The translations under genes were made by a program, and so were the position numbers. The notes under the pieces are model-generated. The model did no database searches. It was not told the DNA's origin and saw only the letters and a list, made by a program, of their open reading frames with translations. This document shows, in pieces, positions 1 to 29,482 of a stretch of 39,562 bases of DNA. The stretch comes from a virus (lineage: Duplodnaviria > Heunggongvirae > Uroviricota > Caudoviricetes): IMG/VR virus record IMGVR_UViG_2690316243_000006; one strand, 5' to 3'. Each line of letters begins with the position of its first letter. Position 1 is the stretch's first letter.

Positions 1-361
1 GGTACTTACCTCGGTACGGGTGTTCGGGTTCCAGGGGATCTCAAAGGACTCCGGCAGATAACGCACGGTGTCGCACAGGACCAGGCTCTGGTCGGTACTT
101 TTTTGCGCGTGCTCCTCATAAAAGAAGATGCCTTCCTCCGCCGCCATCCGGCACAGGAAATCGTAATCAGTTTCGCCGTACTGGACACAAAACTCACGGG
201 AAGGATGCGGCTCGCTGAACAGCGGACTCCACTCGGTCACACCGTTTTCCTTCAGGATCGTCGCGAGGATGCTTTCGATGTCCTCATTCTGGAAGATACG
301 GAAGTTCTGGCGCAGCCCTATGCGCCACAGCGGTGGGCATACCTTCATGCTGTACAGCATC
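1..361 (-). pseudogene. vgrG: Host vgrG-like (T6SS spike / phage gpD-like) gene, distal fragment, interrupted by prophage insertion; partial at window edge
   Basis: Minus-strand frame open from 363 to 1, reading QMLYSMKVCPPLWRIGLRQNFRIFQNEDIESILATILKENGVTEWSPLFSEPHPSREFCVQYGETDYDFLCRMAAEEGIFFYEEHAQKSTDQ...; continuous in frame with 39535-39562 once the prophage is removed. Confidence 0.6.
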
Positions 362-364
362 TGG
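351..364. repeat. Left copy of 14-bp direct repeat TGTACAGCATCTGG at the prophage junction; contains the inferred 5-bp target-site duplication GCATC (357-361)
   Basis: Identical 14-mer at 351-364 and 39529-39542; host sequence resumes immediately outside both copies. Confidence 0.7.
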
Positions 365-440
365 CGATTTTTTTGATACCGATTTGCATTTCATTTGATA
401 CCGCTGAAAAACACCGATACGCAACTTATTTGATACTAAA
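362..440. repeat. Phage right-end (attR-like) region with repeated putative transposase-binding motif TTGATACCG
   Basis: TTGATACCG at 373-381 and 395-403, TTGATACTA at 430-438; the inverted complement CGGTATCAA/CAGTATCAA recurs at the opposite end. Confidence 0.6.
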
Positions 441-482
441 TCGGCGCTTTTCTTTTGAGTTTTAGAATGAGTTTTTAAGCGT

Positions 483-1220
483 TCATTCACTCTCTTTCAA
501 ACCAGTTTTAACTGTTTGTGGTTTTGGGTAAGGCTGGACTTTGAATAGCTTTGTGTTAAGGCGTTTTCTGGCTCTCTTGTCCAGAAACCGGATGTAACGA
601 AACTGACGGAATTTATGAACACTGGCTCTGTCGATATTAGCCCGCAGATGTTCACCTCGCTGTCCTCCTCGTTTGATTGCATTCTTGCAAATCTCGTGAT
701 ACCACTCGCCATCAAGTTCATAGAATGTTGTTTCATGACTGCCTACATAATCAAAATTGCTTGCCTGGTACACGACACCAAGACAGCCACAACGCTCATC
801 TGCAAACGACTGAACCCACTGCACCTGCGGATAAAGTTGTCTGATTAGTTTGAGCGCGTAACTGATTGCCCTTGATTCGGAGTTTCTCGGCATACAGTCA
901 TGCAGCCATAACCGGTTAAGCTCCATATATTCGCGGTTCTGCGTGCCAGTTACGACGCGTGCACCATTGTTTGGATTAAGGGCATAACCCCATTGCATTA
1001 CGCCAACCAGCTCCCGTTCTGAAAATATGCCCAGATGAAGGTAGGAATTATTTACGAAACGATGGCTGTAATGTTTATTGACGACGACCAGCCGGGCCAG
1101 CCAGCAACTTATTGTCTCAACCCGTAACTCACGGGAGCCATAACCGACGATATTGTCGTTATAGTGAATAAGTTCAGGCGTGCTGATGATACGGGATGTA
1201 ACTTGCTTTCTGTTCCCCAC
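483..1220 (-). CDS. mom: Mom-like DNA modification protein (start tentative: GTG at 1220 preceded by AGGAAA; the open frame extends to 1415)
   Basis: Position at the phage right end immediately downstream of, and overlapping, a Com-like zinc-finger gene, as in Mu com-mom; assignment is by synteny, not motif recognition. Confidence 0.55.
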
Positions 1221-1374
1221 GACAGGATTTCCTTGTGTATGTGGGGTGCTCTGTGGCGCTCTGAGATGTGATTTGATTGAGGGTTTTACAGCGCGGACAT
1301 TTAACTTCCAGATAACTGAAGCTGGCTCGTGCCAGTAGCTTGTTACAATGTCGGCACCGTATGTTTCGATACAT
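1174..1374 (-). CDS. com: Com-like zinc-finger translational activator of mom
   Basis: [34 protein letters not shown]...[15 protein letters not shown] resembles Mu Com (CxxC...CPRC zinc finger); ATG at 1374 preceded by GGAGG; 3' end overlaps the mom frame. Confidence 0.8.
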
Positions 1375-1520
1375 GGCCGCATAACCTCCTGCTTTGTTGT
1401 TGATATCTTTATCACTCAATCGATCGACAAAAACGATCGATTTGATTTATTTAATTGATACAACAAATAACACGAAATGTCATTAGCGAAAATTTATGAG
1501 TTTGATCACTAATTTTAAAC
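1375..1520 (-). promoter_or_regulatory. Upstream control region of com-mom with three GATC (Dam) sites
   Basis: GATC at 1422-1425, 1435-1438 and 1504-1507 in an AT-rich leader; in Mu, mom transcription is controlled by Dam methylation of upstream GATC sites and by C protein. Exact promoter not resolved. Confidence 0.45.
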
Positions 1521-1630: not shown

Positions 1631-1924
1631 ATGGACAATCATGTAACGACGAGAAATCGAAAAATGATTGAAAATGCGGAAATCTATAATGATTATTTTT
1701 CCGATTATTCAGATGCCTGCAAATACAGTTCGAGTGCGGGAGAGTTCATATGCTTCAACTTTTTTATTAAATCTTATGTTTTTCCTCCACAGCAAGAAGA
1801 TGGAGGTGTGCCACCTCCTGAAATCACTTTGCACCGTATAGCCTCCGTCTCAATGATGGAGCAACAGGCTAATGAGCTGTATAGCATTCTGGGAACGATT
1901 CTACAAAAGCGTGAATCGGACTAA
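1631..1924 (+). CDS. Hypothetical protein (97 aa) in AT-rich cargo, divergent from com-mom
   Basis: ORF with AGAGG upstream of the ATG; no recognisable motif. Confidence 0.4.
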   Translation: MDNHVTTRNRKMIENAEIYNDYFSDYSDACKYSSSAGEFICFNFFIKSYVFPPQQEDGGVPPPEITLHRIASVSMMEQQANELYSILGTILQKRESD

Positions 1925-2091
1925 TGATACCGGTTCATTTGCCTGCCCGGATGGGGAAGCAGGATTGACTGCTCCATAAGCAGCTATATTTCTGAATACG
2001 AAATACTATCCAGCGATTACATATGGCTGGATAGCGGCAAAGATGTTTTCATTAGTGTCAAACCGGCAGAGGACACCACCGGTTTGTATTG

Positions 2092-2346
2092 TTACATCAT
2101 GGTACTGTCAGTTCCGGGCTGAGCCGGGTCTGGTTGCTCTGGCTGCGCGTCGGTTTTCGGCTCATTATCAGCATCACTGGCCGCAACTGCTGGCCCAATA
2201 AGTTTTGCCAGCACTTCATCAACGTAAGTGTCGATTTGTGCCTCAAAATCCTTGCGGACCTGCGCTTTCAGCAACTTATTTACTTCACCGGAATACAGTG
2301 CCTGTTTTACCAGGTCTTCAGTGACGGTGCCTTTAATTTCTGGCAT
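2092..2346 (-). CDS. Hypothetical small acidic helical protein (84 aa)
   Basis: Strong RBS AAGGAGGA 7 nt upstream of the ATG; protein-like composition; downstream of the 60-aa membrane protein gene. Confidence 0.5.
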   Translation of the reverse strand: MPEIKGTVTEDLVKQALYSGEVNKLLKAQVRKDFEAQIDTYVDEVLAKLIGPAVAASDADNEPKTDAQPEQPDPAQPGTDSTMM

Positions 2347-2381
2347 GTATATCCTCCTTATGCGGGAATAAAGCCCTGCAA

Positions 2382-2564
2382 TCAGGGCTGGGTCGGGTCT
2401 TTTGGGAGCGGAGTTACCTGCGCTGTTTTACTGAGTTTTTCAGCTGCTGCGTCCTCAATTTTGCGGCGAACATAATTTCTGATGGCCTTATAACCACCAC
2501 TCACCAGATATAACGCACATACTGCCGTGCAGAAATACAATAAAATAAGCTGTAAAAATGTCAT
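2382..2564 (-). CDS. Small single-pass membrane protein (60 aa; true start ATG at 2564, the ORF-track start at 2576 is a TTG)
   Basis: GGGAGGG RBS before the ATG; N-terminal hydrophobic helix LQLILLYFCTAVCALYLV followed by a basic tail. Confidence 0.5.
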   Translation of the reverse strand: MTFLQLILLYFCTAVCALYLVSGGYKAIRNYVRRKIEDAAAEKLSKTAQVTPLPKDPTQP

Positions 2565-2579
2565 TATCCCTCCCAATTA

Positions 2580-2620
2580 TTGACATGGTGTTGACACCGG
2601 TAATATCTGTTAGGTAAAAA
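2580..2620 (+). promoter_or_regulatory. Candidate sigma70 promoter on the + strand
   Basis: TTGACA at 2580-2585 and again at 2591-2596; TAATAT at 2601-2606; imperfect dyad GGTGTtgACACC at 2587-2598. Confidence 0.3.
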
Positions 2621-2660
2621 GGTGCACTGCATTTTTTGCTTTGGATATAACGATCTTTTT

Positions 2661-2701
2661 GCCGCCGGTTTCTTGTTTTCCCTTACCGGCGGCATTTTTT
2701 T
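2661..2701 (+). terminator. Candidate intrinsic terminator on the + strand
   Basis: GCCGCCGGT ... ACCGGCGGC stem (9 bp, 15-nt loop) followed by a run of seven T at 2695-2701; on the minus strand the stem is followed by AAAAAG, so it is not a canonical terminator for the esterase gene. Confidence 0.45.
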
Positions 2702-2708
2702 ATCCTGC

Positions 2709-4763
2709 TTACGCGTTATTCACTTCCACCACGATACTGTCAATCAGTACCGGGTAAGTCGCATTTTTAGTGATATCGGTCACGCGCAACTTGTCTGCCG
2801 TAAACGTGCCGACCGGAGACTGCGACAGCATGAATGGTGTCCCGTCCTTACCATCAATGACCGGCGTCACCTCAATACTGTTGTTACCGGCAAAACGGAA
2901 GCCCAGCGTATGCCATTCGTTATTAAATGCGCCGAATGACCCCAGCTTCGTGTTCTGCGCCGTGTTTCCTTTGTGATACATCACGTTAAGGTCTGTGGCA
3001 TCGCTCTGTACGTAGAACGATGCCAGCAGGTTATGACCGGCATTTCCTTCCAGAGTAACCCCTTGCGGCAGGGCAGAAACCGGCCAGTACAGCGCCAGTG
3101 CGTACTGATTAGCCGTAAGCGCGCCATCGAGTTTAAAACGACAACTGACAAGACCACCTTTACCCAGCAGGTCCGCACCATTACCAGCATCATGCTCAAG
3201 GTACCAGGGGGCTCTTCCTGTTTCCTTGGTCAGTTTCATTGCCTTACCCCCGCTGGCTCCGGCATCATCCACGATTTGAGCCTTGCCACCTCCGGCAGCC
3301 CAACCCTGTGGTGTCAACCGTCCTTCAGACTCAGATGCCCGGTAAGCAAATAGCGTACTCATCGTCGTGGTGTCTGCGGGTGGCGTGGACGGTTTTGATG
3401 GTGTATCAGGTGACGGCTTCTCATCCGGTGGTGTCACGGTCTGCCCGCGCATCAGTTCAGCCGTGCGCCCTGCATGGAGCATAATAGCTGAGGCCAGACG
3501 GTCTGAAATGACGCCCCTGCGTGCCCATGAGCTGAAATGGCTGTCACGCTGTGTCGAAACAAAACTGCCCTGGGTTCGGGATGCTGCACCGTAATACCCG
3601 ACAGCCACAATATCCGGGTCTTCCGCCGGAGCATTCGTTGGCGTGCTCTGTCCATTCTCATCCGTCAGGAACGGTACAAAGAAAATTTTCTGTGCTTCCT
3701 TGCCTTTGTAGCCACCGTATACTGCCTCATATTTATCGGTGCCAGCGTTTTTCCAGTAATACGTGGTATCACCGCAAATCCACGGCACCGTGGTGGCATT
3801 TCCACTCACGCACTGCGCAGCAAGCGGAGCCAGGTCAGTTCTGAACTGCTGAACCATGGCCGTGAATAAACTATTATGCTGCTGGCTTCCTGAGGCAAGG
3901 TCTGCCTCTCCCTGCATCCAGACCACAGCCAGAAGTTTGTTTTTCGGGTTTTTCGCCAGCGCGACTTTGGTGCGGCTTACCAGGTCCTGATACAGAGGTT
4001 TACCGGCCCCCCAGCGTGAAGAATCAGCGGAAGCACCGCTGGCCTCACTGAATGAGCCGTCGGCTCCAGTGGTGAATGCTGACCCGCCACGACAACAGGG
4101 CACCAGAAGTATCCCGGCATTCTGTGGGATATAGGGAAGCAGTTTTTTGGCAATATGCAACCCCTGACCGACAGTCCCGTACTGGCCTTTTGCCAGATCA
4201 GCTTTCGGGTGGTTTATCCCGCTCATATCCTGAACATCATGCAGGCAGTGGTCTGCCGGAATGATGTCGTTGTATGTACACGACGTACCGTTGGGCGTTA
4301 CCGTACTGCGGCGTGCCAGTTGCTTAATGCGTGGGTCCGGGCGGTCAAACGAATCCGGTAACGGCAGCCCCTCGCCGTAGGCCATGCCATTTGACTGACC
4401 CGCGAGAATGACAACAAAGTAATATTCCGGCTCTGAACTGCTGCCATTCGTGCTACCGGAAGGCCCGGCGTTATCCGGTGCATTCCAGTCGGAGGGCGTG
4501 AGCGTTCCGGCCACGTCAGATGTGATTGGAATGATGCCAGTCACGCCTGAACTGGTGATTTCTGCACTGGGATTACCGGATACCGGCATTACCCATAATG
4601 GCTCTTTCGTGCTGAAGCGGATCACGCAGTCTGCGAAGGTGATCCCCCCTTTATTACCCGAAGGGCGGAAAGGGCTTTCAATAAATGCCACCGTGCCACC
4701 GGCAACCTTGACTGAAAACTCTCCGGGCATGGCGGAGAGCATTTTCCACTTGGAGTCTGACAT
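2709..4763 (-). CDS. Sialate O-acetylesterase-like protein (SASA/SGNH esterase domain, Pro/Thr-rich linker, C-terminal lectin-like domain); resembles prophage NanS-p proteins
   Basis: GQSNGMAYGEG and WMQGEADLASG motifs typical of the SASA family; linker TPPDEKPSPDTPSKPSTPPADTT; about 200-aa C-terminal domain; own promoter region after the gin terminator. Confidence 0.7.
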   Translation of the reverse strand: MSDSKWKMLSAMPGEFSVKVAGGTVAFIESPFRPSGNKGGITFADCVIRFSTKEPLWVMPVSGNPSAEITSSGVTGIIPITSDVAGTLTPSDWNAPDNAGPSGSTNGSSSEPEYYFVVILAGQSNGMAYGEGLPLPDSFDRPDPRIKQLARRSTVTPNGTSCTYNDIIPADHCLHDVQDMSGINHPKADLAKGQYGTVGQGLHIAKKLLPYIPQNAGILLVPCCRGGSAFTTGADGSFSEASGASADSSRWGAGKPLYQDLVSRTKVALAKNPKNKLLAVVWMQGEADLASGSQQHNSLFTAMVQQFRTDLAPLAAQCVSGNATTVPWICGDTTYYWKNAGTDKYEAVYGGYKGKEAQKIFFVPFLTDENGQSTPTNAPAEDPDIVAVGYYGAASRTQGSFVSTQRDSHFSSWARRGVISDRLASAIMLHAGRTAELMRGQTVTPPDEKPSPDTPSKPSTPPADTTTMSTLFAYRASESEGRLTPQGWAAGGGKAQIVDDAGASGGKAMKLTKETGRAPWYLEHDAGNGADLLGKGGLVSCRFKLDGALTANQYALALYWPVSALPQGVTLEGNAGHNLLASFYVQSDATDLNVMYHKGNTAQNTKLGSFGAFNNEWHTLGFRFAGNNSIEVTPVIDGKDGTPFMLSQSPVGTFTADKLRVTDITKNATYPVLIDSIVVEVNNA

Positions 4764-20756: not shown

Positions 20757-20933
20757 TCCGGCAGCATAAGCCGGTGTTTTTCGGGGCCGGTTTTGCGGGA
20801 CTTCAGAAAGTGCTGACAGGGGAAAAATGAGAAAGGCGCTTCACGCAGATTTTAAAGCCCGTTAAATACAGGTTAGAAAATCACGACACGCGCCTGAAGA
20901 GGGTAAGGTAATGCGTTTGTATACCTTAAACCA
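20757..20933. other. G-I intergenic spacer near the genome centre; candidate strong gyrase site
   Basis: 177-bp non-coding gap about 48 percent of the way along the prophage; in Mu the strong gyrase site lies in this spacer. Positional inference only. Confidence 0.3.
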
Positions 20934-21447: not shown

Positions 21448-21527
21448 GTCAGTGTACGCTTAACTGGTAAAGTCGGTGCCTGCCTCCGGGTGGATCATGT
21501 ATGCGGGTTCGACCCCCGCCACTGACC
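21448..21527 (+). other. tRNA-like structure (perfect acceptor stem and T-arm, no anticodon stem) in the F-G spacer
   Basis: GTCAGTG pairs with CACTGAC (7 bp); T-arm GCGGG TTCGACC CCCGC; U8-A9 and a GG-containing D-loop; no 5-bp anticodon stem can be formed. Confidence 0.35.
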
Positions 21528-28918: not shown

Positions 28919-28989
28919 TGTTACGCTGTCTCATGGTGTTCTCTGAGTCAGCGTAACCGTGAGGAAAAGGGGGCAGGATTTGCGGAATA

Positions 28990-29412
28990 TCAGAAAAGCC
29001 GGGGCTGCGTGCGCTCCTGATGCAGGCGACGCTGGTTGCGGATAACGGAGTAAATCTGCGTCTCTGACATCTGGTAGTGGCGGCGCAGGGTTTCAATTTT
29101 TTCGCCCTGGCTCCAGCGGGAAAAAATTTCATTATTGCGCAGTTCGGTGAAAAGGGATTCACCGACCGGGAGATAATAACCACGCCCGCCCATGTACCCG
29201 GCCTGTGCGGCTGCAACCTTACGGGCAAGCATTCCCGCCTGAGCAGGTTCAATCCCCTGACGGTGCAGTTCAGCACTGATCACATCAACCAGGTCCCGCA
29301 GCGTGCCGGGCCAGTTCTTTTTCAGCTCATCATCAGGAATATCATCCAGACGGTCAATCAGCGCGTGCAGCTGTTCGCTGTCACCAAACATGCTCATCTG
29401 TGTTTCAGCCAT
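28990..29412 (-). CDS. Mor/C-family transcription activator (likely the late-gene activator by position upstream of lys)
   Basis: 140 aa; C-terminal HTH ...IETLRRHYQMSETQIYSVIRNQRRL resembles Mor/C. Confidence 0.7.
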   Translation of the reverse strand: MAETQMSMFGDSEQLHALIDRLDDIPDDELKKNWPGTLRDLVDVISAELHRQGIEPAQAGMLARKVAAAQAGYMGGRGYYLPVGESLFTELRNNEIFSRWSQGEKIETLRRHYQMSETQIYSVIRNQRRLHQERTQPRLF

Positions 29413-29443: not shown

Positions 29444-29476
29444 GTTTAAAATAAAAATCCCGCGCTGTGGCGGGAT
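29444..29476 (-). terminator. Intrinsic terminator immediately after gemA
   Basis: Minus-strand hairpin ATCCCGC/GCGGGAT followed by UUUUUAUUUUAAAC. Confidence 0.55.
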
Positions 29477-29482
29477 TTGGGG

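Follow-up and report, generated by a model that had tools for sequence, protein, structure and literature searches.

A com-mom module near one end of a 39,562-nucleotide stretch of viral DNA (the whole stretch is called the window here) raises the question of whether its mom gene is controlled as in bacteriophage Mu. An earlier note on this DNA had proposed a non-ATG start for mom, pointed out GATC sites upstream of com, and found the locus compatible with the Mu scheme of Dam methylation, C protein and Com-dependent translation. All of its coordinates, for com, the mom frame, the GTG, the overlap and the GATC sites, hold. The best explanation of the locus, in which we have considerable confidence, is a Mu-type com-mom operon gated at two levels.

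The window consists almost entirely of one Mu-like transposable prophage in minus-strand orientation (about 363-39532), with genes for a transposase, Gam, a Mor/C-family activator, lysis, head and tail proteins, and gin. The com-mom operon lies at the right end of this E. coli prophage, where Mu carries com-mom. The same element occupies another chromosomal site in E. coli AF39, with 99.4% identity across 363-30011, and the annotation of that copy includes a transposase, an AAA ATPase, Gam, a Mor-family activator, lysozyme, Mu-type head and tail genes, and a Gin-type invertase. The host junction is placed at about 363 because homology to the prophage at the other chromosomal site stops there. 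A survey of 5426 complete E. coli genomes found the module in 233 (∼4%), and the prophage family also occurs in O157:H7. The operon is a genuine, intact, and widespread one of the Mu type.

Both proteins are readily identified. Com matches Pfam PF10122 (Zn_ribbon_Com) with E=7.5e-13 (48.2 bits, cut-off 22.9), and Mom matches PF25680 from profile position 1 to 202 of 202 with E=1.6e-77 (260 bits, cut-off 27.1), values that place both genes far beyond chance and bear out the earlier recognition of a com-mom module with Com at 1174..1374. A search of NCBIfam gave no Mom or Com model. Com is a four-cysteine zinc ribbon of the CxxC...CxxC kind (Cys 7, 10, 26, and 29) that is 45% identical to Mu Com, and PGAP calls the identical com CDS. 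In an alignment beginning at residue 1, window Mom shows 78% identity to the 231-aa Mu Mom. Its Y51, R103, S116, and Y151 correspond to Mu Y49, R101, S114, and Y149, all in invariant columns of a 14-sequence alignment; these Mu residues are reported to be functionally critical or essential (PMC7261163). The features of the region are collected in Table 1.

Table 1. Positions of the com-mom features and of related elements in the window
Feature	Position	Strand	Basis or remark
Flank left of the prophage (362 nt)	1-312		Phage_GPD (VgrG-type) protein fragment encoded
Prophage right end, downstream of mom	363..482	-	GGTATCAAA-type repeated motifs
mom CDS, GTG start, 245 aa, stop 485-483	483..1220	-	Pfam PF25680, identity to Mu Mom, RefSeq
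com CDS, 66 aa, ATG 1374, TGA 1176-1174	1174..1374	-	Pfam PF10122, identity to Mu Com, PGAP
Translation-inhibition hairpin (TIS)	1215..1246	-	Minimum-energy fold and pairing in relatives
Com target, bipartite GAGCGCC-ACA-GAGCACC	1245..1261	-	Motif match and stem covariation
com ribosome-binding site AGGAGG, 10 nt upstream of ATG 1374	1385..1390	-	Read from the sequence; conserved across the lineage
Candidate core promoters overlapping the GATC pair, P-b and P-c	1400..1430	-	Hexamer scan
Candidate P-b, TGaTAAAGA	1414-1406	-	Hexamer varies in the lineage
Candidate P-c, TTGTCG, 19-nt spacer, TATCAA	1430-1425, 1405-1400	-	Hexamer cores and spacing in all lineage variants
Perfect inverted repeat AATCGATCG-N7-CGATCGATT, 9-nt arms	1418..1442	.	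Homologue of Mu GATC sites II and III
Best OxyR-consensus match, overlapping the GATC pair	1423..1459	-	13/20 specified positions
Conserved upstream block at the module edge, with ATCAATTAA and candidate P-a	1443..1483	-	Homology to O157-type and Stx-phage-inserted relatives starts at 1469-1483
Candidate P-a, ATGACA, 17-nt spacer, TATCAA	1483-1478, 1460-1455	-	Hexamer scan; upstream of the GATC pair
Third GATC, outside the conserved module	1504..1507	.	Sister prophages carry unrelated sequence there
C-like late activator (Mor family)	28990..29412	-	Pfam Mor 6.7e-31; 40% identical to Mu C

The mom frame is open from 1415 down to 483, and several lines of evidence identify the GTG at 1220 as its start. 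This codon lies downstream of AAGGAAA at 1233-1227, overlaps com by 47 nt, and yields a 245-aa product; the AGGAAA, the overlap, the approximate length, and the open frame to 1415 had all been described correctly before. It aligns codon for codon with a GTG of Mu (L001:858, where L001 is the Mu locus). The Mu start is a GUG within the stem of the translation-inhibition structure, or TIS (PMC6483171), and Mu Mom has been treated as a protein of 231 aa (PMC7261163). That length corresponds to the GTG at L001:858; the record NC_000929 instead annotates an ATG 30 nt upstream. RefSeq PGAP annotation selects the window's start in identical and sister prophages (738-nt CDS, 47-nt overlap; WP_000528246.1 and WP_000528251.1). 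Moreover, in the O157-type sister lineage, whose Mom is 96-97% identical, a GTT to GTA change that is silent in com creates a TAA in the mom frame 73 nt into com and leaves the GTG as the sole start codon of the open frame. The GTG is likewise the only candidate start in L050, L088, and L092. As the homologue of the Mu GUG, the RefSeq choice, and the only start left in the O157-type lineage, GTG 1220 can be accepted as the mom start. A non-ATG start is no novelty here, being already annotated and homologous to that of Mu.

Initiation farther upstream, at ATG 1382 or GTG 1415, would give a Mom of 299-310 aa read through com in another frame. The open frame in the window would permit this and an AGGAGG adjoins ATG 1382, but only 2 nt separate that ATG from the ribosome-binding site, the Mu frame opens only 109 nt into com, and the Pfam Mom domain covers the 310-aa reading frame only from residue 96 on. 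The com-silent TAA blocks any such extension in the sister prophages and therefore excludes 1382 and 1415 there. Together with the observation that conservation among 14 diverse homologues starts only at S9-R10 of the GTG-initiated protein, and with PGAP also picking the GTG, these stops effectively exclude 1382 and 1415 as a conserved feature; an upstream start is so improbable that it can practically be set aside.

With initiation at the GTG, the junction of com and mom carries the two RNA elements of the Mu translational switch. Selection experiments defined the Com motif GAGNNCC(N2-3)GAGNNCC, and a hairpin form with CC(N2-3)GAG across the loop is bound by Com (PMC6483171). The sequence in the window matches both the SELEX motif and the loop motif and lies directly 5′ of the TIS. 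Its hairpin has a 4-bp stem (1259-1256 with 1249-1246) and a 6-nt loop, CACAGA, so that CC-ACA-GAG spans the loop. One position of this stem is a C·A mismatch that is common to L004, L030, and L031 and is U-A in L009, and the minimum-energy fold gives only two pairs of the window's Com hairpin.

The earlier note had suggested folding the overlap in search of a stem-loop that sequesters the start, and one is found at 1246-1215, burying both the GUG and the ribosome-binding site. Its 6-bp outer stem pairs CCCCAC (1246-1241) with GUGGGG (1220-1215), which places the GUG start (1220-1218) inside the stem, and within its 20-nt loop an inner helix takes up the GG of the ribosome-binding site, AAGGA (1233-1229). 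For a 58-nt segment the fold has an energy of -14.3 kcal/mol and z = -2.0, and extending the context to 141 nt leaves the hairpin in place.

Both helices were examined for covariation in an alignment of 14 distinct enteric junction sequences. Across the two, 96.8% of 126 cells pair, compared with 24-56% after the 3′ partners had been shifted by 1-3 columns, and the observed covariation score was reached by none of 500 shuffles. All four stem pairs of the Com hairpin have changed on both sides among the 14 relatives. All cells of the TIS stem pair, and its closing pair covaries (C-G in eight sequences, U-A in five, U·G in one) with no unpaired case; neither change alters the protein of its own frame, as com keeps His (CAU/CAC) and mom keeps Gly (GGA/GGG). 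Pairs 2-6 of the TIS never break, hardly vary, and sit in doubly coding sequence, and the covariation of this stem comes from the closing pair only. An alignment column shared by the two elements (column 25, C1246 in the window) can pair with column 12 in the Com hairpin or with column 56 in the TIS and covaries with both, which hints that the hairpins may be mutually exclusive. An Rfam scan of the whole window matched no family, and there is therefore no curated model for com-mom RNA. Taken together, motif, folding, and covariation lend good support to the scheme of Com-dependent translation with which this locus had been found compatible, and by these comparative criteria the switch is conserved. 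The covariation adds comparative support for a two-hairpin Com switch that has hitherto rested on Mu and one Haemophilus Com.

Upstream of com, the leader is AT-rich, as had been remarked (34% G+C at 1376-1630 versus 54% for the whole window), and GATC sites occur at 1422, 1435, and 1504. By count, the cluster is not significant: the window holds 117 GATCs, fewer than shuffled sequence, and equally tight pairs and triplets occur elsewhere in it. The pair at 1422 and 1435 is judged real because of homology rather than count. It aligns with sites II and III of Mu at the identical 13-nt spacing, and both of its Dam sites (1422-1425 and 1435-1438) fall within a perfect inverted repeat whose Mu counterpart is AATCGATC...GATCGATT. 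Both GATCs are kept in all 13 upstream variants of the lineage and in all 17 enteric relatives that have this pair spacing. A plus-strand terminator-like call at 1418-1442 is merely this GATC inverted repeat, as no plus-strand gene ends there.

The third site is a different matter. The GATC at 1504 lies 69 nt upstream of the pair, and homology with sister lineages starts only at 1469-1483; the nearest further GATC in those lineages lies 31, 69-70, or 109-111 nt upstream of the pair. Thus the picture of three Dam sites stands for 1422 and 1435, the equivalents of Mu sites II and III, and fails for the third, since the window lacks Mu site I and 1504 is a bystander without conservation. As to the impression that the spacing departs from Mu, within the pair the spacing is the same 13 nt, the third site is 69 nt off, and the pair sits 27 nt nearer to com.

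The insignificant count and the loss of one of Mu's three sites could also mean that the GATCs are a chance or relic feature without a regulatory role, or that the module is a silent remnant. Among the lineage variants, however, the pair and its repeat stay the same apart from a single change in one arm (L025), in contrast to the following 20 nt, where many positions differ. The pair spacing is kept in every enteric module that has it. No such GATC cluster is found in the non-enteric com-mom modules (Pseudomonas, Desulfovibrio, and Rhodospirillaceae), whose hosts are not expected to have Dam, and this distribution fits a Dam-linked device. Both open reading frames are intact with their critical residues kept, and the module recurs in those 233 genomes, so that an absence of any regulatory role seems quite improbable.

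The best match to the OxyR consensus in this region overlaps the pair. Its score is as high as the best in the mom region of Mu and is suggestive, but taken by itself it is weak, and three other sites in the window also reach 13. Scores of 12 or more cluster at 1414-1454. The Dam/OxyR layer of control is probably retained through two of the three Mu sites.

The promoter itself departs more clearly from Mu. We take the Mu promoter to have the -10 element TAAGAT, a transcription start near 697 in L001, and the C site TTATgccccaATAA. In the window 51 nt separate the proximal GATC from the com ATG, as against 78 nt in Mu, and sequence comparison indicates that about 27-30 bp are absent, namely the segment that in Mu includes the C site TTATgccccaATAA, a poor -35 element, and a T6 run. 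Functional assignments for this missing segment are also found as general statements in the literature (PMC3378877, PMC4461284). With the GATC pair this close to com and this segment gone, an OxyR-type operator here should either coincide in part with the core promoter or fall among the 40 nucleotides transcribed first.

The dependence on C that formed part of the Mu scheme finds no support in the sequence, given the missing C-site segment and the lack, upstream of com, of a box of the kind shared by Plys and PI. The phage does encode a C-like activator (Table 1), and Plys (28947-28987) and PI (20760-20800) share a box with 26 of 41 positions identical, CCGCAAAnCCnGCCCC...TTAYGCTG; CCGCAAAnCCnGCCCC occurs in the window with no mismatches only at these two. 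Upstream of com this box was not found, the best match to the 41-nt profile being 12/26, which is the background level. The box was likewise found at none of the other promoters of the phage, the third late promoter included, and its absence upstream of com is therefore no proof of independence from C. Two possible C-site traces were considered and set aside. CCGCAAA on the reverse strand at about 1566-1572 was judged to be chance, as a 7-mer is expected about five times in the window. The dyad TGAT-N6-ATCA at 1414-1401, which resembles the TTAT-N6-ATAA of the Mu C site, is unconserved in sister variants and would place the -10 element inside com.

When 1380-1640 was scanned for standard sigma-70 promoters, the com strand yielded none. 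Relaxing the hexamer criteria brought up P-a, P-b, and P-c, with no firm ranking among the three; the lineage conserves P-a and P-c but not P-b. The sequence ATCAATTAA, upstream of the GATC pair, is common to Mu, where it is the 3′ end of gin. Under all promoter scenarios, the operator is predicted to overlap the core promoter or the early leader instead of lying upstream of an activator site as in Mu.

One scenario is a compact promoter, in which the Dam/OxyR operator has moved onto the core promoter, the C site has been lost, and mom is gated without C by Dam/OxyR alone or by an unknown binder of the inverted repeat. The spread of enteric modules agrees with it, as they fall into two classes. 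In the Mu-type class (Mu, D108-like, L033, L035, L089, L090, and L102), three GATCs are spaced 18/19 and 13 nt apart and the proximal one is 71-83 nt from com. In the short-type class (the window lineage, the IMG/VR loci L030, L031, and L032, and L088 from Edwardsiella anguillarum), only the GATC pair is present, 51-57 nt from com. Moreover, L030-L032 and L088 have good -10 hexamers (TATACT, TATAGT, and TAGATT) 11-13 nt past the proximal GATC, and the lack of a Plys/PI-type box upstream of com points the same way. On the other hand, the -35 regions are poor, which usually means that an activator is needed. The C sites of Mu at Pmom and Plys are themselves unlike, so that a C site that had diverged could escape notice, and the window C, with its 40% identity to Mu C, has a specificity known from two promoters only. 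A compact promoter is accordingly put forward as a tentative possibility.

Alternatively, transcription could start from P-a, upstream of the pair, with the OxyR-type site in the transcribed leader acting as a roadblock, as in E. coli agn43 (flu). Within the conserved block, no com-strand sequence comes nearer to sigma-70 than P-a (9/12), and both P-a hexamers are conserved in the lineage, but its -10 hexamer has no final T, and L030-L032 and L088 lack these hexamers and have their best -10 downstream of the pair. Use of P-a appears unlikely.

In the preferred explanation, a Mu-type operon with two-level gating, Mom would be a GNAT-fold enzyme that uses Gly-tRNA(Gly) to convert adenine in phage DNA to N6-carbamoylmethyl-adenine, as homology suggests; Gly-tRNA(Gly)-dependent formation of this base is the reaction described for Mom (PMC13219725). 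The modification is expected to protect phage DNA against restriction enzymes. By the same homology Mom would be toxic to the host, and its expression would therefore be gated at two levels. At the promoter, by analogy with Mu, OxyR may bind unmethylated or hemimethylated Dam sites and repress, and full Dam methylation may relieve this repression; a layer of activation by C is not visible in the sequence. At translation, folding and covariation show that mom, starting at GUG 1220 inside the 3′ end of com, has its start codon and ribosome-binding site locked in the hairpin at 1246-1215. Com, translated first from the same mRNA, would then bind the hairpin at 1261-1245 and open the mom start, as in Mu.

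The discovery value of the locus is small, as the genes, the GTG start, and the Com mechanism were already known from Mu. They are textbook Mu biology, already annotated in RefSeq. The shortened promoter region, a modest variant that has not been described before, is the only unusual feature of the operon. Among enteric com-mom promoters, those of the Mu type have three GATCs, whereas those of the compact type have two and no known C site. It is conceivable, if doubtful, that several enteric Mu-like phages have a distinct short-type mom promoter with the Dam/OxyR operator on the core promoter and the C site gone, in which methylation and Com alone switch the toxic mom gene and C1246 may alternate between the hairpins as a physical switch. 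If true, this would be a toxic phage gene run by a Dam/OxyR switch without a late activator.

Known systems offer three points of comparison. In the Dam/OxyR switch of agn43 (flu), GATCs lie in an OxyR operator at or just downstream of the core promoter, and methylation sets the on or off state. That system has three GATCs, governs a host gene with heritable phase variation, and has no translational gate of the Com type, and its likeness to the window is confined to operator position. A second comparison is with the short-type relatives L030-L032 and L088. Like the window, they have just the GATC pair with its 13-nt spacing (in these relatives 52-54 nt from the com ATG), a C-G closing pair of the TIS, and a GTG start. 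They differ in having a much better -10 just past the pair and a hairpin in the leader ahead of the ribosome-binding site, and often a third GATC 31 nt upstream of the pair.

The third comparison is with Mu itself. Its GATCs lie at L001:610, 628, and 641 (spacing 18 and 13 nt), at about -87, -69, and -56 and upstream of the activator site. Of this Mu arrangement of three GATCs spaced 18/13 nt, the window has the 13-nt pair only, 27 nt closer to com, and site I has no counterpart. Where Mu has a C site between the GATCs and the -10, the window has neither the Mu segment nor a match to its own Plys/PI box. In addition, a 3.4-kb block (a SASA esterase, DUF1378, DUF826, and an orphan ORF) separates gin from com in the window. 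The com-mom overlap, counted from the GUG, is 50 nt in Mu versus 47 nt, and the TIS loop of Mu is 11 nt, whereas the TIS of the window has six G-C/A-U pairs and a 20-nt loop with an inner helix that also pairs the ribosome-binding site. The overall plan is nevertheless that of Mu, and also of D108 and SfMu: a transposable prophage carries the operon at its right end, com and the 5′ end of mom overlap, a CCCAC/GUGGG hairpin buries the mom GUG and is immediately preceded on its 5′ side by the Com target hairpin, and GATC sites II and III are present at identical spacing with their flanking inverted repeat.

Nucleotide 1246 can pair either with 1259, closing the Com-binding hairpin, or with 1215, closing the inhibitory hairpin that covers the mom start. 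Across relatives, the corresponding position (column 25 of alignment A3, which holds 14 enteric junction sequences) covaries with both partners. The Com switch may thus physically pivot on nucleotide 1246.

The putative late promoters of the lysozyme and protease genes are identical at 26 of 41 positions. Their shared box consists of CCGCAAAnCCnGCCCC, a 13-nt spacer and TTAYGCTG, and probably serves the phage's homologue of the Mu late activator C as binding site and -10 element. Upstream of the C homologue gene itself, at 29467-29482, there is a weaker relative with two mismatches.

Features of the late promoters and of the region between the invertase gene and com
Feature	Coordinates	Strand	Remarks
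Putative late promoter	28947-28987	-	upstream of lysozyme gene
Putative late promoter	20760-20800	-	upstream of protease gene
gin-type invertase	4849-5421		
Extra block	1664-4763		3.4 kb, between gin-type invertase and com
684-aa protein	within 1664-4763		SASA sialate-O-acetylesterase + DUF6645
DUF1378 and DUF826 genes	within 1664-4763		
Orphan ORF, 86 aa	1664-1924		oppositely oriented

The complete Mu-like prophage (363-39532, minus strand, about 39.2 kb) takes up nearly the whole window. The flank at 1-362 belongs to the interrupted gene, whose product has a VgrG-type Phage_GPD domain (Pfam, 5.9e-28); in E. coli AF39 a copy of the prophage is inserted in dcyD. Mu lacks the block that this prophage carries between the invertase gene and com. 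We read the 684-aa protein of the block as NanS-p-like. Nothing in Pfam, PHROGs or NCBIfam matches the orphan ORF, and a different ORF takes its place in the related O157-type sister prophage.

The RefSeq pipeline PGAP names Com (1174-1374, as annotated in loci L003 and L004) a "DNA-binding transcriptional regulator," which is misleading because the literature describes Com as an RNA-binding translational activator. PGAP also places a "tRNA-OTHER" at about 21448-21527 (plus strand) of an identical prophage; ARAGORN and Rfam found no tRNA anywhere in the window. In the Mu reference record NC_000929 (L001:828-860), Mom has 241 residues and begins at an ATG that precedes the documented GUG start by 30 nt. 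The literature length is 231 residues (PMC7261163), and a 2026 structure paper reports that loss of 10 N-terminal residues is tolerated.

Mom homologues without a com gene (L051-L084 and L097-L101; 66-70% identical) occur in genomes of Yersinia, Serratia and Sphingomonas as well as in IMG/VR viral contigs that are unassigned. In L054 (619-1500), the one locus of this set that was checked, a gene for the phage antiterminator Q (Pfam PF06323, 7.9e-41) lies directly 5' of mom, which follows a structured leader. Q antitermination appears to gate mom there, and the start is ATG or TTG.

No GATC cluster lies upstream of the distant com-mom modules of Pseudomonas, Desulfovibrio and Rhodospirillaceae (L106-L135). 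Several of these modules carry a near-perfect tandem GAGCGCC-N3-GAGCGCC, clearest in the Pseudomonas group, just 5' of a mom that starts with ATG. These tandem motifs are closer to the SELEX-derived Com motif than is the sequence of Mu.
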